A stretch of DNA of 24,727 nt, from IMG/VR virus record IMGVR_UViG_3300038393_001969, positions 1-24,727 of that record. One strand, written 5' to 3'. This stretch comes from a virus. Taxonomy: Duplodnaviria; Caudoviricetes. Each line of letters begins with the position of its first letter. Within the stretch, counting starts at the first letter, position 1. The notes under the pieces are model-generated. The model saw only the letters and a list, made by a program, of their open reading frames with translations, was not told the origin of the DNA and searched no databases. Below, piece after piece: positions 1,773 to 12,803 of this stretch. A program made the position numbers and the translations under genes.

Positions 1773-1832
1773 CAAAAAAAATAGCCGTAATCCCCCGCCC
1801 TTCAGGGCTGGGGATATAAGGCGTGAATGGGG

Positions 1833-1861
1833 TTGATCTGTGAACGTCTAACCACTATAAT
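1833..1861 (+). promoter_or_regulatory. Sigma70-type promoter of tnpB (probably leaderless mRNA)
   Basis: TTGATC (1833-1838), 17-nt spacer, TATAAT (1856-1861). The ATG lies 6 nt downstream and there is no RBS. Confidence 0.7.
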
Positions 1862-1867
1862 ATCAGT

Positions 1868-3040
1868 ATGGCCAAACATCGCAAGGTCTACCGCTTCCGC
1901 ATGAAGCCTACCGCCGAGCAAGGGCATGCTCTGGCTCGGTTGGCCGACGCACGCCGCTTCATCTGGAATTGGGGTCTTGCGAGGAAGCGGGAGCACTACA
2001 AGGCGACAGCGAAGACGCTTCGCTACGTCGAACTCAACCGCGAGTTGACGGAACTGAAGCGTCAGGCCGGGATGGAGTGGCTTCGGGAGGCCGACTCCCA
2101 GTCGCTTCAAGAGGCTCTTCGCGATCTTGACAGGGCGTTCGTGAACTTCTTCGAGAAGCGTGCCCGGTTCCCCCGGTTCAAGAGCAAGAAGCGGGACAAG
2201 GCTCGATTCCGCATCCCCCAGCGAGTCAAGATCGATAACGGCAAGGTCTACTGCCCCAAGGTCGGTTGGGTCCGCATCCGCCAGAGCCAAGAGGTTGCCG
2301 AGAAGACCAAGAGCGCCACGTTCCGACGCTCGGCTGATGGCAAGTGGTACGTCTCTCTGGTTGTTGAGTTCGAGATGCCCGAGGTCGTGCCGGTCATTGA
2401 TCCCGCCAAGGTCGTCGGCATCGACTTGGGCCTGATCGACTACGCCACGCTCAGCGACGGATCTAAGCCGGTTCCCGCCCCGAAGTTCTACCGCAAGGCT
2501 CAACGGAAGCTCCGCAAGGCGCAACGTGTGCTTTCCCGCCGGCAGAAAGGGTCGAAGCGGAAGGCCAAGGCTCGCGTTGCCGTGGCCAAGGTCCACCAAC
2601 GAATCGCCAACCAGAGAGGAGACTTCCTCCACAAGTTGACCACGCGCCTCGTTGCCGAGAACGATGCCATCTGCATCGAAGACCTGTCGCTCCGTGGGCT
2701 GGTGAGAACCAAACTGGCCAAGAGCTTCACCGACGCTTCGATGGGCGAGTTCCGCCGGCAGTTGGAGTACAAGTGCCTTTGGAACACCAAGGCACTCGTG
2801 GCCGTCGATCGCTTCTTCCCCTCGTCCAAGATGTGCAACGCCTGCGGTGCCCTGAACAACGCACTGACGCTCTCGGATCGGGAGTGGGACTGCGATTGCG
2901 GGGCACATCATAAGCGGGACTTCCTCGCGGCCTGCAACATTCGGGACGAGGGACTCAGGATGCTCGCCGAGGGATACTCGGAGAGCCTAAACGCTCAGGG
3001 ACAGACCGTAAGACCGGCGACAGTCGGCTCGTCTGGTTGA
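1868..3040 (+). CDS. tnpB: RNA-guided endonuclease TnpB
   Basis: N-terminal YRFRMKPT..Q and RFIWN helix; RuvC-I GIDLG, RuvC-II IEDL, Zn ribbon CNAC...CDCG and RuvC-III RDFLAACNI. The catalytic D/E/D residues appear intact. Confidence 0.95.
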   Translation: MAKHRKVYRFRMKPTAEQGHALARLADARRFIWNWGLARKREHYKATAKTLRYVELNRELTELKRQAGMEWLREADSQSLQEALRDLDRAFVNFFEKRARFPRFKSKKRDKARFRIPQRVKIDNGKVYCPKVGWVRIRQSQEVAEKTKSATFRRSADGKWYVSLVVEFEMPEVVPVIDPAKVVGIDLGLIDYATLSDGSKPVPAPKFYRKAQRKLRKAQRVLSRRQKGSKRKAKARVAVAKVHQRIANQRGDFLHKLTTRLVAENDAICIEDLSLRGLVRTKLAKSFTDASMGEFRRQLEYKCLWNTKALVAVDRFFPSSKMCNACGALNNALTLSDREWDCDCGAHHKRDFLAACNIRDEGLRMLAEGYSESLNAQGQTVRPATVGSSG

Positions 3041-3098
3041 ACTGAGAATCCCCCGCCTTTAGGCGTGGGGAGTGTCAAGAACTGCTGCCGTGATCTCT
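2930..3098 (+). ncRNA. Putative TnpB omega/reRNA (scaffold overlapping the tnpB 3' end and right end; guide about 3079-3098)
   Basis: Inferred from established TnpB biology: the scaffold ends at the right-end TCAA and the flanking bases form the guide. The 5' boundary is a guess. Confidence 0.5.
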
Positions 3099-3296
3099 TG
3101 CCCTCGCATCGGACAGCGCGTCCAGATCTGGTATCGTAAGCAGGCGGTCCCGCATCGCCCGCTCCACGGCCTGACCGGGACGGTGGCAGTGACATCGCGA
3201 GGAAAGCCGAGAAATCACGGCGTCATCGTCGCCGGGACGTTGCATGTCGTCCCGGCGGGGAATCTACGAAGAATCGAGGGCGAGCTATGCGTCTGA
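3090..3296 (+). CDS. Small hypothetical protein (SH3/KOW-like beta-rich)
   Basis: GTG at 3090 is the first start outside the IS (VISCPRIGQRVQIWY...G.TGTV...VVPAGNL). It overlaps the next gene. Confidence 0.55.
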   Translation: MISCPRIGQRVQIWYRKQAVPHRPLHGLTGTVAVTSRGKPRNHGVIVAGTLHVVPAGNLRRIEGELCV

Positions 3297-3784
3297 TCTC
3301 CACCATCGACCCCGACTCGCCGATGCCCCTCGCCGGGGCGGTCGTTGATCGTAGGGTCCAAGCCTACTTCGACGGCCCGATCGACCACACGCAGACAGAC
3401 GAGCGCATCCGCAAGGCGATCAACTACGAGCGGGCAAAGTGGTGGTTGCCCGTGCTCGAGTCGCACCCGGCGCTGGCCCAGGCCGCACAGGCACAGGCCG
3501 ACCACTGCGCCGCGCGGGATACGCTTGACCACTTCTCGGCGTGGCCGTTCACGAAATGGGCCGAGCGGTGCGCCCGCGCGGGATATCCCGGGGCTTCGCT
3601 CATGACCATCGGCGAGAACGTGGCCGGTTGGCAGGTCAGCGCCGAGCAAGCTGTCAAGGATTGGATGTCGTCGCCAGGACATCGGCAATCAATCTTGGGC
3701 ACATGGCAACATTGTGGGTCAGCATCGGCTACGGCGGCAAGCGGGCGGTCGTACTGGGTAGTTGATTTTGGGAGGCTGGCGTGA
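3287..3784 (+). CDS. CAP/SCP (cysteine-rich secretory protein, YkwD-like) domain protein
   Basis: IN.ER, L..AAQ.QA, GENVA, AV..WM.SPGHR..IL and YWV..FG motifs. Confidence 0.9.
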   Translation: MRLISTIDPDSPMPLAGAVVDRRVQAYFDGPIDHTQTDERIRKAINYERAKWWLPVLESHPALAQAAQAQADHCAARDTLDHFSAWPFTKWAERCARAGYPGASLMTIGENVAGWQVSAEQAVKDWMSSPGHRQSILGTWQHCGSASATAASGRSYWVVDFGRLA

Positions 3785-4161
3785 TTTGCATTAAGATGCT
3801 CAAGGCTGTAGGCGATTACCCTGAGGGCGCCATAGTGTTCATCGAGGATCGCGTCGGGCGTCGGTATATCTCGGCGAAATTCGCAGAAGAATACCGTGAA
3901 CTGACCATCAATGACCCCATCCTCCACCCGATCCTCGCCGAAGCCGAAAAACTGCGCGACGACCCGCGCCACACCGGCAAGTCGCCTCTGGGGTGGACGG
4001 CGATGCTCAACGACGCGAGCGAACGGATCTACCAGTTTACGGCGGCGGCCGACCCGGAGGACCAGGCGCGGAACCTGGCGGAGATCCGCGCGACGGCGGT
4101 GAGGGCGGCGGCCTTGGGGGTGCTGGTCGCGAGGCTGGCGGATCAGGGGAGGCGGTCGTGA
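3781..4161 (+). CDS. Hypothetical protein
   Basis: 126-aa ORF coupled by GTGA overlaps on both sides; helical C-terminal half. Confidence 0.6.
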   Translation: MICIKMLKAVGDYPEGAIVFIEDRVGRRYISAKFAEEYRELTINDPILHPILAEAEKLRDDPRHTGKSPLGWTAMLNDASERIYQFTAAADPEDQARNLAEIRATAVRAAALGVLVARLADQGRRS

Positions 4162-5069
4162 CGGCACCACAACTCCTCGCCCTGGCCCACGGGATCGCCT
4201 CTGTCGGCGAGCACCGCTGTTTCTACTGCGGCGCTCCCTGCGGCGAGGAGCATCCGGCCTCGGAGCACGTCAAAAGCTCGTTTACCGGCCGGTCGGGGGT
4301 GGTGGCCCCGGGGAGTCCGTGGGTCTGTCCTGGGTGCGTGCTCTGCCTCCGCGAGTCCGCAGAGATTACGCTGATCGACGGGGAGATTCGCCGGGGGCAG
4401 AAGGTCCGGGGCTACTCGTGGGTCGTCACGGCAAACTCAGCCCTGGCGGCCACGAAGGCGCACCTCGAGCAACTGCGGGCGCTCTGCCTCGACCCGCCCG
4501 AGCCGCCGTTCGCGATCGTGCTCACGGACTCGGGCCAGACCCACCAGCTCTACCGCGGGACCGTCAACCACTCCCGCGAGGTCGTCACCGTGACGCTCGA
4601 GGCCGAGCCGGTCACCTACCGCGCCGGCCAGCGCGTCTTCTACCGCCCCGACGAGCTGGCCCCCCGGCTCGACCTCTGCGGTCGGCTGATCGCCGCCACG
4701 GGCAAGCCGGCGCTGCGGGAGCCGATCACGCAACGGTTCGCCCTCGCGGTGATGGAGCGCTACTGTGACGGCGAGGCCCTTTTGAACCTCTGGACCCGCG
4801 TGCGGGAGCAGCCGCTCTCGCGGCTGGCAGCCTGGATTTCCCCTGCCAAGGAGACCTGCCTGAATGTCTACCCAAGCGACTTCGCCCCCCGGGAACGTTT
4901 CGACCCCGCTCCCGCCGCTACCGACGATCGACACGGAAGGGCTCCGGCGCGTGATGGCCGGGTTTGCCAGCCCGCATCCGGCCGGCGCGGCGGAAACCGC
5001 CGGCGAAACGGCGACGATCCGGAATCTCAGCAGCGATCTCTGTTTGGTGATGGCCAAGCACTTCGGTAA
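4158..5069 (+). CDS. csf1: Type IV CRISPR-associated large subunit Csf1 (Cas8-like)
   Basis: GTG start overlapping the upstream TGA, with a GGGAGG RBS. Zn-finger CFYCG...SFT...S.WVCPGC, then PPEPPFAIV...SGQTH..Y...VN, as in Csf1. First gene of the csf cluster. Confidence 0.8.
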   Translation: MTAPQLLALAHGIASVGEHRCFYCGAPCGEEHPASEHVKSSFTGRSGVVAPGSPWVCPGCVLCLRESAEITLIDGEIRRGQKVRGYSWVVTANSALAATKAHLEQLRALCLDPPEPPFAIVLTDSGQTHQLYRGTVNHSREVVTVTLEAEPVTYRAGQRVFYRPDELAPRLDLCGRLIAATGKPALREPITQRFALAVMERYCDGEALLNLWTRVREQPLSRLAAWISPAKETCLNVYPSDFAPRERFDPAPAATDDRHGRAPARDGRVCQPASGRRGGNRRRNGDDPESQQRSLFGDGQALR

Positions 5070-5442
5070 GGAACTGGATCGCAAGACGCTGTGGGACAAG
5101 ATCGCGAGTGCGCTGGCGGCGGCGTGTGCCGAGACTCGCGGGGGCGACGTTGAGACCTTCCTCTGCTGCTGCCTCGAGCAGGTCAAGGCCAAGCCGGCAC
5201 AGGTCGCGCGGTTCGAACCGTACCTCCAGTTGTTTGCTACGGTCAGTACGTGGCCTGAGGCGATGCGGACGGCGTTCGTCGATTATATCGAGCGGCACCC
5301 GTTCGCAGTGTTGCCCCGGGGCCGGCAGCGGTGGGAGGAGTACAAGGCGCTCGCGCTCGCCACGCGCGGCTCGGGTGGCCGCGCGACGGACGGCGGGGAT
5401 GATGAGGCCGAGGAAATCCAGTCCTGGGGGGATGAAGGATGA
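4864..5442 (+). CDS. cas11: Putative Cas11-like small subunit of the type IV-B complex
   Basis: AAGGAG RBS; all-helical 192-aa protein (DRKTLWDKIASAL...) between csf1 and csf2, the usual position of Cas11 in IV-B loci. The call rests mainly on synteny. Confidence 0.6.
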   Translation: MSTQATSPPGNVSTPLPPLPTIDTEGLRRVMAGFASPHPAGAAETAGETATIRNLSSDLCLVMAKHFGKELDRKTLWDKIASALAAACAETRGGDVETFLCCCLEQVKAKPAQVARFEPYLQLFATVSTWPEAMRTAFVDYIERHPFAVLPRGRQRWEEYKALALATRGSGGRATDGGDDEAEEIQSWGDEG

Positions 5443-6509
5443 GCTCCGTCGGACCGCAGACGTACCGGGTCATCTGCTTGTCGCAGTGCCAGTCGCCGGT
5501 GACCCACATGGCACGGTCGGAGGGGAACCGCGCCGTCCTGATGTCCGAGAAGGTCGAGACGCCTCAGGGTGTCCGTCTGGTGCCCTGCCTGACGGGCAAC
5601 TCGCTGCGGCACCGCATGGTCCGCGCTCCGGGTGCGGACTGGCTCGTCCAGCAGTACGGGTTGCGGGAGCGGCTCAACCTGACGCAGTTGAATTTCCTCT
5701 TCCACGGTGGCTCGTTGACCGAGGGGGGCGGCCGGGAAGACACGCGCCGGATCGCCGACATGCAGCGGCTCCTGCCGCTCTCGCGGCTCCTGGGCGGCTG
5801 CCTGCCCGACCAGGTTTTCTCAGGTAGTCTGCTCGTGAGCATGGGGGTCCTGGTCTGTGAGGAGAACCGCTTCCGACTCGAGTATTATCTGGATTGCCCC
5901 GGCCAGGGCCTGCTCCCCGACCGGCTGCGCCCGGCCAACCATTTCGTGTCGGACTACCAGTACACGCGGGGGGACATGCGCAAGAACCGCGCGGCCCTGT
6001 TGAGCCAGGGGACGGGCGAGGACCTGGACCTCGCCGCGCTGCGGACCGAACTCGGCGCGATCAAGGCCGCCAAGAAGCCGACAAAGGCCCAGACCGAGCG
6101 GAAGGCCGAGATCCAGGGGATCCTCCGGGAATGGGAGCACCTGGAGTCGGAGGAGTCCGGGACCAACCTCATGATCTTCTCGGGTGAAGCTCTGGTGGCC
6201 GGCACGGCGCTCGTCCACGACTTCATCCTGCCGGGCGCGAGCCGGCTGGAACTCGGCGCCCTGCTTTGGTCGCTCGTGTGCTGGGCACGCTCCGGAGGGG
6301 CCATCGGCGGCCAGGCAGCCCGCGGACACGGGCGGCTGCGCACGCAACTGGTCGGGGACGTCGACCAGTCGTGCATCGAGGAGTACCTCGCCTACGCCGA
6401 CGCGGTCCGTGTCGAGGCTGTGGCCTGGCTCGACGCGGCGTTCCGGCGGTCGCCGGCCGCGGTAGCGTCGGCCGAGAAACGTGCCCGCGTCGCGGCACGG
6501 GGGGCATGA
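5439..6509 (+). CDS. csf2: Type IV CRISPR backbone subunit Csf2 (Cas7, RAMP)
   Basis: SPVTH, VP.LTGNSLRH.MVR, LFHGGSL, P..RLLGG, YTR.D, MIF..E.L..GT and the C-terminal Gly-rich loop IGGQAARGHGRL. Confidence 0.9.
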   Translation: MSSVGPQTYRVICLSQCQSPVTHMARSEGNRAVLMSEKVETPQGVRLVPCLTGNSLRHRMVRAPGADWLVQQYGLRERLNLTQLNFLFHGGSLTEGGGREDTRRIADMQRLLPLSRLLGGCLPDQVFSGSLLVSMGVLVCEENRFRLEYYLDCPGQGLLPDRLRPANHFVSDYQYTRGDMRKNRAALLSQGTGEDLDLAALRTELGAIKAAKKPTKAQTERKAEIQGILREWEHLESEESGTNLMIFSGEALVAGTALVHDFILPGASRLELGALLWSLVCWARSGGAIGGQAARGHGRLRTQLVGDVDQSCIEEYLAYADAVRVEAVAWLDAAFRRSPAAVASAEKRARVAARGA

Positions 6510-7318
6510 CCGTGGCCGAGGTCAAGGCAACGGATCGTCCCCGCCCGCTCCTGGTCCGGGCGCTGCTGGTGGAGCCCTACGCGGGCGATCCGCCGCAGCT
6601 CGACGCGCTCCTGGAGGCGACGCTGGCCCCCGAGTATCAGAAGACGGTCGAGGGGCGCAAGATCGAGCGCCAGTTCGCAGCGCCACCGCAGGGGGAACTG
6701 GCCATCCCCCTGGCGCGGTGCTGGGTCGTCGTCGCGCCGAACGGCAAGGCTGTCACGGCAAACCATGTCCGCGGCGAGACCGCGCCGGCGGGGACCTTCA
6801 CGCCTGACGCCCACGCGTACCTTGTCGGCTGCTGCTCCGATCCGATCGTGGGCGAGCCGGTGGCCGAGTCGGTTGCATACATCAACAAGCGGATCGACGT
6901 CAGCCGGGCGGCGATGCTCGCGCCGGAGTCCCGGGTCGTCGTCGCGATGACGAACTCGTGGACCAAGGCGTACCGCTTGCCGCTCACGCAGCGCCTGGTT
7001 CACGAGGTGCGGTGGCTAGCACTCGGGCGGCGGCGGCCGTTGCTCAGGACGCTGGAGCGGGTCCATTCGATCGGCAAGAAGCGGTCGGTCGGCAACGGCC
7101 GGGTCCGGCAATGGCTCGTGGAGCACCTCCCCGACGCCCGGGTCCACCGGCTCTGGCCCTGGTGGGTCGAGACCGAGCACGGGCCGCTCCTCATGCGGAC
7201 GCTCCCATCCGGCTCCTGGCTCCCCGAGGGCCTGATCGGCGCGCGGCGGGACTTCCGGTCGTGCTGTCCCCCCTACTGGCACCCCGAGCGGTACACGGAG
7301 GTCGTGGTCCCATGTTGA
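6506..7318 (+). CDS. csf3: Type IV CRISPR subunit Csf3 (Cas5, RAMP)
   Basis: ATGA overlap with csf2. LDALL, IPL, KAYRLPL, Gly-loop IGKKRSVGNGRV..W and C-terminal PPYW motifs. Confidence 0.85.
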   Translation: MTVAEVKATDRPRPLLVRALLVEPYAGDPPQLDALLEATLAPEYQKTVEGRKIERQFAAPPQGELAIPLARCWVVVAPNGKAVTANHVRGETAPAGTFTPDAHAYLVGCCSDPIVGEPVAESVAYINKRIDVSRAAMLAPESRVVVAMTNSWTKAYRLPLTQRLVHEVRWLALGRRRPLLRTLERVHSIGKKRSVGNGRVRQWLVEHLPDARVHRLWPWWVETEHGPLLMRTLPSGSWLPEGLIGARRDFRSCCPPYWHPERYTEVVVPC

Positions 7319-8088
7319 CGCCGATTCACGAGGACGATGCTCGACTCGGTCGACTCCTGCGGCTGCATATGCAAGGGTTATCCCAGCGAGACGTGGCCGA
7401 GCAACTGGAGGTCTCACAGCGGGCAGTCTGCTACACGCTCAAGCGGCTGAGGATCGCCCCCAACGGCTACCACACGCGCACCTCCCGGGCCAAGCGGGCG
7501 CGGGCGTCGCGCGACGTGGCCCGCCAGCGCCGCGCCACCGCACCGTTCGATCTAGCCTGGGAGGCCGAGTGGCCGCTCGCCGCCGGGTCGATCGGCCCAC
7601 GCATGGGCTACCACGCCTTCGCCGCGCTGTCCCGGCTCGGCCTGGTGGCGCACGCCGAGCCGGGGGTGCAGTTGCTCCCGTTGGAGGACCGGCTGATCTT
7701 CCGGGCCTCCGAGGATCGCGTCACGGGGATGGTGTCGCGACTGATCGAGGGGACCGTCCTCCGGATCGGTTATGGGACTTGCCGGCTTGGGTCGCCGGTC
7801 GTGCGGATGCCGGCGGCGCGGTCCCGGCTCGAGTCGTGGTGCGTCACGGTCAAAGACAAGCGGGACCCCGAGGCGATGCGCCAGTGGTGCCAGCGAGAGC
7901 TGCGCCGGCTGGGGATCGACGCACGGCTCGAGGTTGGCGCGCGGCGTGTGGTCAAAATCAAGGGCCGGCTGATCGTGGGCTACGCTGTCCGCCTCTCCCG
8001 CCTGCACCCGCGGGAGGCCCTGCGGCTCCTGGCGGTGGGGCTGGGGGGTCGGCGACGGTTTGGGTGCGGGGTATTTGTTGTATGCTGA
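7312..8088 (+). CDS. cas6: Fusion of an N-terminal helix-turn-helix with a Cas6 (I-MYXAN/Cmx6-like) endoribonuclease
   Basis: The N-terminal GLSQRDVAEQLEVSQRAVCYTL is an HTH. The Cas6 part has GY..FAALSR, RRVVKIKG..IVGY.V.L..L...E.L.L...GLGGRRRFGCGVF, the C-terminal GhGxxxxxGhG loop of Cas6. GGAGG RBS upstream. Confidence 0.8.
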   Translation: MLTPIHEDDARLGRLLRLHMQGLSQRDVAEQLEVSQRAVCYTLKRLRIAPNGYHTRTSRAKRARASRDVARQRRATAPFDLAWEAEWPLAAGSIGPRMGYHAFAALSRLGLVAHAEPGVQLLPLEDRLIFRASEDRVTGMVSRLIEGTVLRIGYGTCRLGSPVVRMPAARSRLESWCVTVKDKRDPEAMRQWCQRELRRLGIDARLEVGARRVVKIKGRLIVGYAVRLSRLHPREALRLLAVGLGGRRRFGCGVFVVC

Positions 8089-8849
8089 TCCCGTCCCCCC
8101 GCCACACCCGGCGCGACCTTGAGCTTTGGGCCGAACTCGAGGATGCCGACCGAATCCATGCTGCGAGGCCGCAGTTCGCCGCCCGGCTCGAGCGCTCGCT
8201 CAGGGAGATCCGCGCCTTCGTCGCAACGCGGCCCTGCCATGCCGGAGTGTCGTGGGGTAAGGATTCGGTCGTGCTCGCGCACCTGCTCTGGCTGACGGCG
8301 CGGCACGTCCCCCTGATGCACCTGCGGCCGAGCAACCACAACCCGGATTGCGACCGGGTGCGCGACGCCTACTTCGTGCGGTTCCCCGGCCAGCCCTACG
8401 AGGAGATTGCCGTCGACTACCGGGACGTGGACCGCACCCTACCGGACGAGCAGGTCGACCGCTTGACGGACCAGCGGTGGTATGCCGCGATCCGCGAGTA
8501 CGAGGCGGCCCACGGCAACCGGCATCTCCTGGGGATCCGCTCCGACGAGTCGTTCGGGCGGCGGATCCGCACGCTGCGGTGGGGGTTGAGCACGCCTCGC
8601 ACCTGCGCCCCGATCGCGTGGTGGACGACGGCCGACGTCTTCGGCTATCTCGCGAAGCACGACCTGCCGACCCACCCGGCCTACGCGATGCTGGGCGGCG
8701 GCCGGTGGCCGCGCGACCGGCTCCGGGTCGCAGAGATCGGGGATACGCACGGCAAGGGGTCGGGACGGCGAGACTGGGAACTCGAATTTTACGGCGACGT
8801 GCTGAGGCGGCTGGAGTATGGAGGACGACCGTCATGCTTAAACTTGTGA
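8082..8849 (+). CDS. cysH: CysH-like (PAPS reductase family / PP-loop) protein of the type IV-B locus
   Basis: PP-loop variant SWGKDS, LGIRSDES..R and PIAWWT..DVF.YL. Coupled to the cas6 stop. CysH-like genes are the hallmark accessory of subtype IV-B. Confidence 0.85.
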   Translation: MLIPSPRHTRRDLELWAELEDADRIHAARPQFAARLERSLREIRAFVATRPCHAGVSWGKDSVVLAHLLWLTARHVPLMHLRPSNHNPDCDRVRDAYFVRFPGQPYEEIAVDYRDVDRTLPDEQVDRLTDQRWYAAIREYEAAHGNRHLLGIRSDESFGRRIRTLRWGLSTPRTCAPIAWWTTADVFGYLAKHDLPTHPAYAMLGGGRWPRDRLRVAEIGDTHGKGSGRRDWELEFYGDVLRRLEYGGRPSCLNL

Positions 8850-9313
8850 TTTCCGGTGGCCAAACAGGAAGTGATCAGGCCGGCTGGCGTGCGGCTCGCG
8901 CGGCGGGACTGGAAACCGGCGGTTGGATGCCCCAGGGGTGGCTCACCGAGGAAGGCTCCCGGCCGGAATTCGCCGAACTCTACGGCGCAAGGGAGACGGA
9001 CTCCTACGACTATCCGACGCGAACCCGAAAGAACGTCGAGATGGCTGATCTGACGATCTGGTTCGGCTCCGGCGATTCGTCGGGGTTCTGGTGTACGCGC
9101 AATGCGGCCAATGCGGCTCACAAGCCATTCTGGATCATCGAGCGACCCGATCAGGTGGGCGACCCGGCCCCCGCCATCGCAAAACGGATCAACTTGCTCG
9201 GTTACAAGGTGGTCAACGTCGCGGGAAATCGCGGCTCGAAGATGGCTGATGGCGGGGCGTGGGTTGAGGCGTTTCTGCGAGAGGTGTTCGCGTTGCTCGG
9301 GCAACAAGGCTGA
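8834..9313 (+). CDS. SLOG-superfamily 'putative molybdenum carrier' protein
   Basis: ISGGQTG.DQA...AA...G..TGGW.P.G, Y..RT..NV..AD.T..F and VNVAGNR.S motifs. Overlaps the cysH end. Confidence 0.85.
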   Translation: MLKLVISGGQTGSDQAGWRAARAAGLETGGWMPQGWLTEEGSRPEFAELYGARETDSYDYPTRTRKNVEMADLTIWFGSGDSSGFWCTRNAANAAHKPFWIIERPDQVGDPAPAIAKRINLLGYKVVNVAGNRGSKMADGGAWVEAFLREVFALLGQQG

Positions 9314-9328: not shown

Positions 9329-9583
9329 GTGGCTGAGCCGAAGACGAAGAGCCTTGGGTTGATGACGCACCGTACCGTCGCTCGGCTGTGTGATCTCGAC
9401 ACTGAAACGCTGAGGAAGTGGGTGGCCAAGGGCCGTTGGCCAGAACCCCACTCCATCATCGAGCAGACGTGGTTCTACCCGACCGACCTCATCCACCATT
9501 ACATCCACACCGGGGGATGGCCTGAAGGGACCAAGTTCCGCGAGGGAATGGGCGAGGCCAGGACCGCACCCGAGTCAGGTTGA
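9329..9583 (+). CDS. Excisionase/AlpA-like winged-helix DNA-binding protein
   Basis: LMT...VA.L.....ETLRKWV.KG.WP.P pattern; convergent with and adjacent to the integrase. Confidence 0.7.
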   Translation: MAEPKTKSLGLMTHRTVARLCDLDTETLRKWVAKGRWPEPHSIIEQTWFYPTDLIHHYIHTGGWPEGTKFREGMGEARTAPESG

Positions 9584-10681
9584 CGGTTCGGGTTTCTGCT
9601 CGAATCTCATGTCGGCCACATGCTTCCTTGCCTCGGTCTCGCTGATCTTCGTATAGCGCCCGGTCATGGCGGGGGTCGTGTGACCGAGTTGTGCTTGGAT
9701 GACCGAGAACGGCTTGCCTTCAAGGGCCATCCATCGCCCGTACGTATGCCGCAAGTCGTGAGGTGTGCCCGCCTTCACCTTCGCCTTGATGATCGACCGC
9801 TCGATCGCCGCCCTTGCCGAGTCATAGGGCACAACGCCGGCGCCGCGTGGGTTCGGAAAGACCAAATTGGGCGAATTTCCTGTCATCGCTCTCCGCTCCA
9901 GGATTTCGCGTGCCGTCTCGATCAGGGCAATCTTGTAGGCTCTCCCGGATTTTGAATGCTCCTTGGGGATGGTCAAGAACCCCTCCCCGAAATCGATCCA
10001 TGACCACTCCATCGCCAGCGTGGCCGAAATCCGGATGCCGGTTGTGGCTAAGACCATAACGAGGTCGGATTGCCACGGCTTGGAGCAGTTCGCCGCGATG
10101 GCCGCGACTTCCTCGGGACTCCAGAATGTCGGCTCGGGCTGGATGATCTTCCCCGGCACGTCCACGAGGTGCCAGGGGTTGGCTTGCACCAGTTCGTCTT
10201 CTAGGGCCTTTGTCCAGATCGGCCCGAGATAGCCTTTTTCCGTCTGAAGTGTGCTCGCGCTGACTTTCTTGATGCGCTCTTGCAGGTAGTCCCGGCAGAA
10301 TGCTTTGTTGACCCCCTGGAGGGATTTGACGCCCCGCTTCTCCGCGAAGGCGAGGAGCGTTTTGATGTGCCGCGCGAGCTGCTTGAGCGATCCGGCATCA
10401 TGCGTCGCCTCGTAGGCGTGGACGTAATCGGCCAGGTAGCCATCAAGCCCCTTGGCACGCTTTGGCGGTGCGGCCATGTTGTTTTTGGCCCGGTACTCGA
10501 TCTCCTCGAATTCTCTCGCCCGGTCCTTGATGAACTGCGGGGGCGTCTTTGGAGGCCGCGACTTGGACCACGGCGCAGGCTGCTTTCCGAGTGACGCACG
10601 CTTCCAGTCGCCGGCCGGATCGGGTTTGTATTTCATGTACCATCGGCCGCGATTTTCGTCGAACCAGGGGGCGCTCGCCAT
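9575..10681 (-). CDS. int: Tyrosine recombinase (phage integrase)
   Basis: Start ATG at 10681 with an AGGAG RBS (MASAPWFDENRGRWYMKY, arm-binding-like N-terminus). Catalytic TGIR, K(SKSG), HDLRH, LGH and T..Y motifs. Confidence 0.92.
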   Translation of the reverse strand: MASAPWFDENRGRWYMKYKPDPAGDWKRASLGKQPAPWSKSRPPKTPPQFIKDRAREFEEIEYRAKNNMAAPPKRAKGLDGYLADYVHAYEATHDAGSLKQLARHIKTLLAFAEKRGVKSLQGVNKAFCRDYLQERIKKVSASTLQTEKGYLGPIWTKALEDELVQANPWHLVDVPGKIIQPEPTFWSPEEVAAIAANCSKPWQSDLVMVLATTGIRISATLAMEWSWIDFGEGFLTIPKEHSKSGRAYKIALIETAREILERRAMTGNSPNLVFPNPRGAGVVPYDSARAAIERSIIKAKVKAGTPHDLRHTYGRWMALEGKPFSVIQAQLGHTTPAMTGRYTKISETEARKHVADMRFEQKPEPST

Positions 10682-10696
10682 GTGGACTCCTGCACT

Positions 10697-11009
10697 TTGG
10701 GCCCCTTTTGGGCCCAAGGGGTTACGGCGATTCTTGGCTGAACGCAAGTCCAGGAAAACTCGCCATAAGTCCTTAGTTTTCATCCGGTTGCAGGGTGAAC
10801 AGTACAGTGTACGTTCAGTGGGGCATGGCATCTAGAATACAACAAGAATGCGTCAGGTTTCCAGCCCAATCTGAGACGTAATGCTTGGTGGGCAAGGGCG
10901 TTTCGGAAACCGGCCCAGACAAAGGAAGCCCGATTGGTGCCGCCGAAACAGGCGTTTAAGGCGATTCCGGCGTTCCTCTTGGTGCTTTGCTTGGGCCCAT
11001 CATGGGCCC
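10697..11009. other. Putative attP site with arm-type integrase binding repeats
   Basis: Two pairs of (T/A)TGGGCCC repeats, each pair 11 bp apart: 10697/10708 and 10991/11002. They flank a lower-GC non-coding core beside int. Confidence 0.6.
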
Positions 11010-11066
11010 CAGAAGGGGAGAGAAGGGGCCGATGCAGGTCTAGGGATAGCCTGCCCCCGCGCACAC

Positions 11067-11201: not shown

Positions 11202-12803
11202 TTAATCCCACCGATCGAGACGGTAATCCGCGTGCATTCGTCCCGAGTGGACGCGAACTAAGGCGTTCCACTTCGATCCCTGATCCAACATGATCCCGTT
11301 GGCCGACTGCTCCTCAGCACCTTCCAGCGTGGCGCTTCGCGAGTATGCCTCGATCGTCGCCCGGATGGCGCGGAGGTCGGCCTTGAGGATCTCGGGGAAT
11401 AGCGCAGCGCTCGTGTTCCGCGAGTCCCTCGCCCCTTCAAGGATCAGGATCGCCGCCTTGCCTTGATGGCCAAATCCGCCGTCGCCCCACATCGGTGGCT
11501 TCAGGGTGATCGCTGCGACGGTGTGCCATCGCCCTGAGGCTAGGCCCCATTGCTCGGGCGTCGATCCACCGCTGTAGACGTACCATGACACCGGATTTCG
11601 TCGCTCCGGACGGTCCCATTGGAGGATCGGCGGGGCGTCGGCATTCGCGGCCGTCACGAGCGCCGTGTAGGCGCCAGGGCCATGCGGGGCGTAGAACTCG
11701 ATGCGGTCAGCGGTCGGGAGCACCGTCCGGGTAAACTTGTCCCACGTCATCGTCGCGGGCGGGACGATCAGTTGCGATGGAGCCGATTCGCCTTTCGGCT
11801 TCAGGTGGCCGAAGACGCCGTTCGTGGCTGGCGTTTCTGGCTTGGGTTTCGGCGTCCAGATCGTCTCGATATCCTCAAGCCGGGCGAACCGGCGCGAGAG
11901 CGAAGGCTGGATACCAAGTTGCTCAACAAGTTTCTCGGCCTGCGCGATGTTCCCCGCCGTGGGCGGAGCCTGCGGACGCTGGTATTGGAGCGGATGCATC
12001 TTGGCGGCGAACCGGCGGGAGATCTCACCGAATTCCATGCCAGCGGCGATGTCTTCCAGGAGTGTGCCGATCATCGATGATCGCGGATGGCAGACCCCGG
12101 CCGGAGCTGTCGCGACCGCCCGCCAGACGAGATTGCTTCGCGCCGGCCCACGTACGCCGTCGATCGCCACATGCAGGTCGTGGAGCCACTGGGCCGGGCC
12201 GAACACCTTGTCGCTTCGATTGAGCGACTCGTTCCTGAGGAGCGTCAGGGCTTGCTCAACCGTGGTTCGGGTGAATTCCTCGAGCGCCCGGAGTACGGCC
12301 AGGAACTCCTGTTTCTTCTCGGCCATCGCCTGCCCAGGCGTCAGGATGCGCCCACGATAGATGGTGGCCTCTGGGACTGTCACGGCCAGGTGATGCCAAG
12401 GGCCGGTAACAGGCTGACCCCAGACGGCTTGCTTGCTGAGGAAGACGCCGGTGACCCTCGCCCTGCGGACGACCCTTTCAACGGCGGCAACCGCCGTCTT
12501 GTAGTGCTCGGGTGCATCGTCTGCGTCCCAGATTGCTGGCCGCGTCTGGCCTTCGGCGTCGATCGTCACGAGTCCGCCGTAGCCCTCCAAGAAGCGGCGG
12601 CAGGCGTGACAGTTGTGGTATTGCCGGTCGGCCGCGAAGCCGTCCAGATAAGCGTCGAAGAGTCCTTCGGCGTCGGTTGCGAAGATTGCCCCGCCGTCCA
12701 GCTGGTTGCGAAGGAAGCGTTCCTGGATTCGGGCGAGGAAACCATCGTATTCGCGGTCATCGCGGGCAGGTTCTGCTGTGTCGGCGGCCTTGGTGCTCAG
12801 CAT
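11202..12803 (-). CDS. Hypothetical 533-aa protein with an N-terminal CxxC (NCHACRRF)
   Basis: Long ORF with a GAGGAG RBS and normal codon usage; no function recognised. Confidence 0.8.
   Translation of the reverse strand: MLSTKAADTAEPARDDREYDGFLARIQERFLRNQLDGGAIFATDAEGLFDAYLDGFAADRQYHNCHACRRFLEGYGGLVTIDAEGQTRPAIWDADDAPEHYKTAVAAVERVVRRARVTGVFLSKQAVWGQPVTGPWHHLAVTVPEATIYRGRILTPGQAMAEKKQEFLAVLRALEEFTRTTVEQALTLLRNESLNRSDKVFGPAQWLHDLHVAIDGVRGPARSNLVWRAVATAPAGVCHPRSSMIGTLLEDIAAGMEFGEISRRFAAKMHPLQYQRPQAPPTAGNIAQAEKLVEQLGIQPSLSRRFARLEDIETIWTPKPKPETPATNGVFGHLKPKGESAPSQLIVPPATMTWDKFTRTVLPTADRIEFYAPHGPGAYTALVTAANADAPPILQWDRPERRNPVSWYVYSGGSTPEQWGLASGRWHTVAAITLKPPMWGDGGFGHQGKAAILILEGARDSRNTSAALFPEILKADLRAIRATIEAYSRSATLEGAEEQSANGIMLDQGSKWNALVRVHSGRMHADYRLDRWD

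Follow-up and report, generated by a model that had tools for sequence, protein, structure and literature searches.

Subtype IV-B among type IV CRISPR-Cas systems (CRISPR: short palindromic repeats that are clustered and regularly interspaced) is defined by Cas11 and CysH without a helicase, as set out in passages of PMC8175902 and 10.1101/780106. Its CysH-like protein, CasCysH, has a PP-motif and no catalytic cysteine (a passage of PMC8175902), and the subtype is described as free of Cas6 'with rare exceptions' (in part of 10.1101/780106). In the system of Mycobacterium sp. JS623 (7JHY), csf1-cas11-csf2-csf3 and a cysH-like gene lie on an actinobacterial plasmid. A second IV-B system with CysH is encoded by Fuxivirus, a virus of Bathyarchaeia (part of PMC10541130). 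Here we analyze the complete 24,727-base virus record IMGVR_UViG_3300038393_001969, called the window throughout. On its plus strand six overlapping open reading frames (ORFs) between 4158 and 8849 form the operon csf1-cas11-csf2-csf3-[HTH-cas6]-cysH, whose fifth gene fuses a helix-turn-helix (HTH) to a Cas6.

Like the JS623 system, this one combines the four csf and cas11 genes with a cysH-like gene on a mobile element and shows no adaptation genes, helicase or nuclease, nor an array in the DNA covered. Unlike it, the phage system includes a Cas6 that is coupled to the other genes and extended by an HTH. The two Csf2 proteins are distant from each other (E 2.3e-6), the phage protein having glycine where JS623 has Asp42, and the carrier is a phage of probably planctomycete hosts rather than a plasmid. 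A type IV core joined to a Cas6 is shared with type IV-A, which has Csf5/Cas6, DinG and an array, and with the RecD-associated IV-D. Fuxivirus resembles the phage in being a virus with IV-B and CysH; it differs in carrying a mini-array, and the main text of PMC10541130 does not mention Cas6.

Systems of subtype IV-B in prophages and rare ones with Cas6 are thus already in print (passages of 10.1101/780106), as is a viral one with a mini-array (part of PMC10541130), while the consulted passages of the 2025 classification (PMC12669027) name no such variant. No HTH-Cas6 fusion in type IV was found in the literature, mostly freely accessible papers; Supplementary Data 1 of 10.1101/780106, where the published exceptions with Cas6 are listed, may include relatives. 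New here are the HTH-Cas6 fusion, the compact Cas6 clade associated with one slot of the operon, and the survey of that slot.

Assignment to subtype IV-B

Sequence comparison supports placing the system in subtype IV-B. The six gene identities proposed in a preliminary description of this DNA were all borne out, each at its place, by PADLOC type IV profiles (PDLC) and Pfam (Table 1). Its assignment to type IV-B is likewise supported, with cas11 and cysH present, DinG, RecD and Cas10 not detected, and the Csf2 tree in agreement; what it overstated is the novelty of a IV-B system with Cas6. That the subtype usually lacks Cas6 is a trait from which this locus departs, as do the rare published exceptions. 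The NCBIfam models for Csf1 (TIGR03114, E 7e-12), Csf2 (TIGR03115) and Csf3 all match beneath their curated cut-offs. In the Protein Data Bank (PDB) the Csf2 profile finds the IV-C protein Cas7c best (11FS, E 9.9e-12) and also the IV-B Csf2 of 7JHY; its 10 matches (E up to 1) include no IV-A Csf2 chain. A quick Csf2 tree (78 rows), built without named IV-A to IV-E references, nests the window among csf1-cas11-csf2-csf3-cysH loci that have no Cas6.

Csf1, Csf3 and Cas11 are all encoded in this one operon, next to a PP-motif CysH-like gene without the catalytic cysteine. The PAPS_reduct match (PF01507) of CysH scores 45 bits against a cut-off of 22.5; all 59 loci compared keep S57, G59, K60, D61 and S62 without exception, and C252 occurs in a single one of them. 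No DinG, RecD, Cas10, Cas1 or Cas2 family was detected among the 23 window ORFs scanned. Five Walker-A-like strings occur in the window and its extension (see below), none in an operon reading frame; one lies within a 626-codon ORF of the extension, outside the family-library scans. The locus shows neither the DinG helicase and array of IV-A, which lacks Cas11, nor the RecD helicase and array of IV-D, and its large subunit is a Csf1 of 303 amino acids instead of the Cas10-like HD subunit of IV-C. Csf2 carries a lysine-rich insertion of about 45 residues. Its Gly29, which aligns to JS623 Asp42, is invariant in 71 homologues; Csm3-like slicing was rejected on account of this glycine in place of aspartate.

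The six-gene set ends at 8849, so that the span of 4158-9313 first given holds seven ORFs. The seventh, a SLOG gene, was discarded as a part of the system: among the 60 related loci of the non-redundant set, only the window has it. On a contig of sequencing run X3 a divergent SLOG allele stands at window 8744-9253 (279 nucleotides swapped for 276 others), the rest being identical. As to translational coupling, another point of the preliminary description, the junctions along 4158-9313 overlap by 4, 4, 7, 7 and 16 nucleotides; csf1 and cas11 instead overlap by about 200 nucleotides (4864-5069), through a low-complexity Csf1 tail, and the true cas11 start may lie slightly downstream of 4864. With redundant loci counted, 28 of 70 have their csf1 stop more than 60 nucleotides beyond the start of the cas11 match.

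The HTH-Cas6 fusion and its accessory slot

A match to Pfam PF09559 (103.5 bits, cut-off 26.7) and a fold of two RNA recognition motifs (RRMs) with a G-loop place the Cas6 domain in the MYXAN/Cmx6 type; TIGR02807 reaches 95 bits, below its cut-off of 98.85. Compared with the Cas6 of the type I-B Cascade of a CRISPR-associated transposon (8FCJ_B), the phage domain is shorter, falls in a separate clade, has the HTH and lacks a cognate array in cis in the DNA covered. It retains the G-loop, and Tyr100, His114 and Arg131 are as in 81 host and other Cas6 proteins, whereas the D97/H98 motif and one RRM1 hairpin are missing and tryptophan replaces host R176. Catalytic residues vary across Cas6 proteins (PMC3727216). 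In the phage domain we predict Tyr100 and His114 as the catalytic pair.

The separate clade of compact MYXAN-type proteins is well supported (Shimodaira-Hasegawa-like approximate likelihood ratio test, SH-aLRT, 99; quick tree), and eleven of its members have the N-terminal GcrA-like HTH and basic helix. Identity is higher in the HTH and basic helix (0.65 and 0.62) than in the Cas6 body (0.40-0.45), where the G-loop stands out at 0.80. The HTH consists of three helices, with Pfam HTH matches at residues 9-50 and a fold like the DNA-binding domain of Caulobacter GcrA (5YIU). Reading of N6-methyladenine as by GcrA was rejected: with an inferred residue register, the methyl pockets R33/N34/I37/G38 are absent, as is the sigma-interacting domain, the C-terminal part being Cas6. 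A likeness to NUMOD3, considered for the basic helix, was rejected as well: 11 proteins gave no Pfam match (E up to 1). The HTH module was found on none of 102 other candidates (proteins of 141-452 residues searched), and the ESM Atlas returned only generic HTH clusters under 0.9.

A survey of related loci set this gene in context. From 111 collected loci, 60 non-redundant ones with csf2, csf3 and cysH on one strand were counted, leaving out fragments that lack one of the three genes and locus L035, on the other strand; slot contents were labeled by hand from ORF lists, some with a Pfam check. Inserts occur mainly between csf3 and cysH, a few of them adjoining csf2 instead. The slot was scored as empty in 36 loci and otherwise holds a cupin (5), Cas6 (5), PAPS reductase plus ParB (4), a SPOUT-like gene (3; weak SpoU match, E 0.048), a stand-alone HTH (3) or other genes (4). 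The retention survey called for in the preliminary description thus finds Cas6 in 5/60 loci, the other 55 doing without. The five come from two families: MYXAN-type (PF09559) in the window and L028, Cas6e-type (PF08798) in L003 and L051, with a weak match (E 0.018) in L004. On the Csf2 tree the Cas6 rows are scattered, the starred branches requiring at least four changes for six rows, and they cluster no more than in shuffles (322/500). We conclude that Cas6 is an optional gene acquired several times.

Several slot neighborhoods were recorded in addition. In a Chloroflexota-associated IV-B branch (L103, L105, L107, L111, L026) a small gene for a winged HTH separates csf2 from cysH. A second PAPS-reductase/DUF3440 gene, paired with a ParB-like one, occupies the slot in L001, L009, L017 and L018, and L001 and L009 add a methylase-like ORF. 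On the 44 kb phage L035 (9998-14484) a full-length MYXAN Cas6 converges on a divergent csf1-csf3-cysH-csf2 operon; the csf2 of that operon is much extended at its N-terminus, where a Cas11 may be fused.

Candidate guides and competing readings

Neither a CRISPR array nor a significant repeat was detected in the window by a repeat finder, Rfam, mini-array scans, repeat alignment or a position weight matrix (PWM); the preliminary description was right in seeing no array, cas1, cas2 or dinG there. The identical record G526 lengthens the phage by 15,534 bases, and this extension too is free of arrays by Rfam and mini-array scans, for a total of 40.3 kb, set against an estimated genome size near 100 kb. 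This overlapping 31 kb record is 29% complete according to CheckV, which puts the unseen part at about 60%. Phage DNA resembles that of 100 of 121 genomes from the order of a planctomycete metagenome-assembled genome, G001, an order we take to be Isosphaerales; because the search covered this order alone, with no control taxon, a planctomycete is the putative host. From these genomes nine distinct hairpin repeats were recovered. The best local alignment of the window to a host repeat scored 26.5, inside the shuffle range of 22-34, and a PWM of the nine repeats stayed under the shuffle maxima in the window; its positive control, a true array, was picked up with 49 bits. A hairpin near 10936 that looks repeat-like by eye gave no score.

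The reading we favor, at a probability of roughly 40%, is that Cas6 captures host type I-B CRISPR RNA (crRNA) for the Csf filament while the HTH binds DNA. HTH-Cas6 would bind and trim the hairpin repeats of the host I-B (MYXAN) transcript and hand the RNA to a predicted Csf2/Cas11 filament, which, once loaded, would withhold or redirect host guides. The HTH would bind DNA, most simply to regulate or position its own operon, and CysH would then act on a nucleotide or nucleic acid via ATP alpha-hydrolysis, the chemistry hypothesized in a passage of PMC8175902. RNA cleavage by Cas6, host pre-crRNA as its substrate and its joining of the complex are each presumed here. In favor we count the intact Cas6 fold and G-loop, the retained Tyr100, His114 and Arg131, and the repeated entry of two Cas6 families into the same slot. 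A host source of the RNA is suggested by the lack of a cis array in the window, the extension and three near-complete relatives with Cas6 (G003, G004 and G005, in the last of which cas6 converges on the IV-B operon). It is also suggested by MYXAN Cas6 matches in 28/121 genomes of the candidate order, some at broken loci, together with G001, where a IV-B locus with compact Cas6 (L028) coexists with an array-bearing I-B/MYXAN locus. There is precedent for viral Cas homologues that act as anti-CRISPRs and for anti-CRISPR proteins with an HTH (passages of 10.1101/2023.06.24.545427). Of the two RNA sources named in the preliminary description, the host array fits circumstantially; a phage guide was not found in the DNA covered.

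A number of observations weigh against crRNA capture. The core job needs no Cas6, as the 55 loci without one indicate, and the Cas6-less IV-B complex of JS623, co-expressed with a I-E Cas6 and array, failed to load I-E crRNA, with about 0.12% crRNA reads (part of PMC7937560). Co-occurrence between IV-B and other CRISPR systems is negative, and a sponge role was rated unlikely by those who reported this (a passage of 10.1101/780106). The compact clade diverged long ago from host Cas6, and with D97/H98, the RRM1 hairpin and R176 lost it may now differ in RNA specificity. The 214 host spacers have no match beyond 13-18 nucleotides in the window, extension or IV-B loci, and none beyond 13-15 in window or extension. 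The single-order host assignment counts here as well, and CysH and the cupin, SPOUT-like and PAPS reductase plus ParB slot genes are left unexplained.

The strongest alternative, which we hold to be unlikely, starts from those slot genes. IV-B would be an RNA- or nucleotide-modifying machine working on non-CRISPR RNA, the slot would hold swappable helpers with Cas6 as an RNA binder or trimmer, and the HTH would be a fused operon regulator. The diverse slot contents fit this, as do the invariant CysH motifs, the better conservation of the HTH than of the Cas6 RRMs and the assembly of JS623 complexes on heterogeneous RNA (part of PMC7937560). It leaves the recruitment of two unrelated Cas6 families unexplained, the SpoU match that would supply one helper is weak, and no substrate was identified.

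Slightly less probable is a guide of the phage's own in the unseen part of its genome, that is, a mini-array or solitary repeat processed by HTH-Cas6; the system would then be self-contained, would bind DNA or RNA under RNA guidance and would recruit CysH. More than half of the genome could hold it, the archaeal virus IV-B locus has its mini-array, and five related IV-B loci (L001, L011, L015, L018, L037) carry CRISPR-like repeats; however, all five lack Cas6, the three near-complete Cas6-bearing phages have no array, and no conserved non-coding flank that might encode an RNA was seen by eye across loci, among the matches listed. The extension contains one weak MYXAN-repeat-like site (L208, about 8978-9013, minus strand) with 18 of 21 letters of the 3' half alike by eye. 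It lies antisense in the 626-codon ORF with a mismatched stem, and 2-4 of 200 null sequences score at least as high, several scans having been tried; the site is probably due to chance.

The Cas6-less locus L037, whose Csf2 is among the nearest to that of the window, has four copies of a repeat of about 37 nucleotides with unlike spacers (4505-4732), starting 67 nucleotides past cysH; the first copy is degenerate, the last is cut by the contig end and Rfam gives no match. It is a candidate natural IV-B array. Two-repeat CRISPR-like mini-arrays lie 5-7 kb upstream of the operons on the phage contigs L001 (1131-1240), L015 (3005-3116), L018 (1734-1848) and L011 (1885-1968). TnpB was rejected as a guide source: it belongs to an ordinary insertion sequence (IS)-type element whose catalytic motifs are intact and which has close relatives among the host-order genomes, and no link was found.

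That HTH-Cas6 is a passenger or lone actor unlinked to the Csf complex, for instance cutting or blocking host pre-crRNA as a solo decoy, is very unlikely. In its favor, the slot varies greatly and stands empty in most loci, and coupling by itself is weak evidence since any gene after csf3 inherits the same overlap. Against it, the clade appears tied to the slot: a start-ML/end-C signature, which goes with overlapping csf3 and cysH, occurs in 6/11 HTH-Cas6 and 10/18 compact Cas6 against 1/56 other and 0/25 host proteins, and L028, the only other member seen in context, sits in the same slot.

Phage context and implications

Integrase, xis-like, RuvC-like resolvase, terminase and portal genes identify a tailed phage that is temperate, as the preliminary description had it; that the operon is an 'early' one, as also described there, is a prediction from the neighboring genes. 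Within 9329-11012, an attP-like stretch (10696-11012) with a putative att role shows, as read from the sequence, an inverted repeat of 7 bp that encloses an 8-bp core (near 10852-10873); on either side lies a 9-bp palindrome, at 10696 and at 10990, the two being nearly identical. No attB was found for it, and the integrase probably starts at 10681 rather than 10831. Operon DNA was found in 11 soil and rhizosphere runs among the matches listed, two of which may be its source, and one contig of run X3 matches window 3863-7502 without any difference.

Elsewhere in the window, an IS200/IS605-family element with matching end hairpins spans 1790-3062 (tnpB 1868-3040, three RuvC motifs kept), and elements 71-72% identical to it are present in host-order genomes. 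A CAP-domain gene (3287-3784) lies upstream of the operon. A 533-residue protein of unknown function (phrog_1735; 11202-12803) stands beside an ArsR repressor and has relatives in two host-order genomes.

Table 1. Coordinates of the operon and its surroundings in the window
Feature	Coordinates	Strand	Evidence or remark
ORF overlapping csf1 start by 4 nucleotides	3781..4161	+	no family match
csf1, Cas8-like large subunit, 4-Cys zinc finger	4158..5069	+	PDLC01574 E 6.8e-65, residues 1-236
cas11, small subunit	4864..5442	+	PDLC01573 E 9.2e-29, match begins at residue 22
csf2, Cas7 backbone	5439..6509	+	PDLC01572 E 2e-71
csf3 (Cas5)	6506..7318	+	PDLC01498 E 2.1e-26
HTH-Cas6 fusion, 258 residues, in accessory slot	7312..8088	+	PF09559 and HTH matches
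N-terminal module: HTH, PNGY motif, long basic helix	7336..7536	+	HTH residues 9-47; helix residues 56-75
Compact MYXAN/I-B-type Cas6 domain	7546..8088	+	residues 79-258
CysH-like (CasCysH), PP-motif, no conserved C-terminal cysteine	8082..8849	+	PF01507
cpYpsA SLOG gene overlapping cysH	8834..9313	+	PF12694 E 6.5e-31
xis-like gene, tyrosine integrase (minus strand), attP-like region	9329..11012		temperate phage context

The natural RNA and the function of type IV-B are described as open questions in passages of PMC8175902, PMC11656645 and PMC12669027. A IV-B system with its own Cas6 makes the guide question experimentally simple, the family of this Cas6 points to the MYXAN repeats of the likely host order as first RNA candidates, and the accessory slot with its slot-specific compact clade supplies natural pairs with and without Cas6. 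An improbable but far-reaching extension of crRNA capture would see IV-B rebuilt as an array-less guide-user, in which the compact Cas6 takes host I-B guides, the GcrA-like HTH fused to it holds on to duplex DNA by the 3' end of the guide, and a DNA binder addressed by RNA plus protein delivers CysH chemistry or transcription control. If this were true, IV-B would gain its first natural guide and target.

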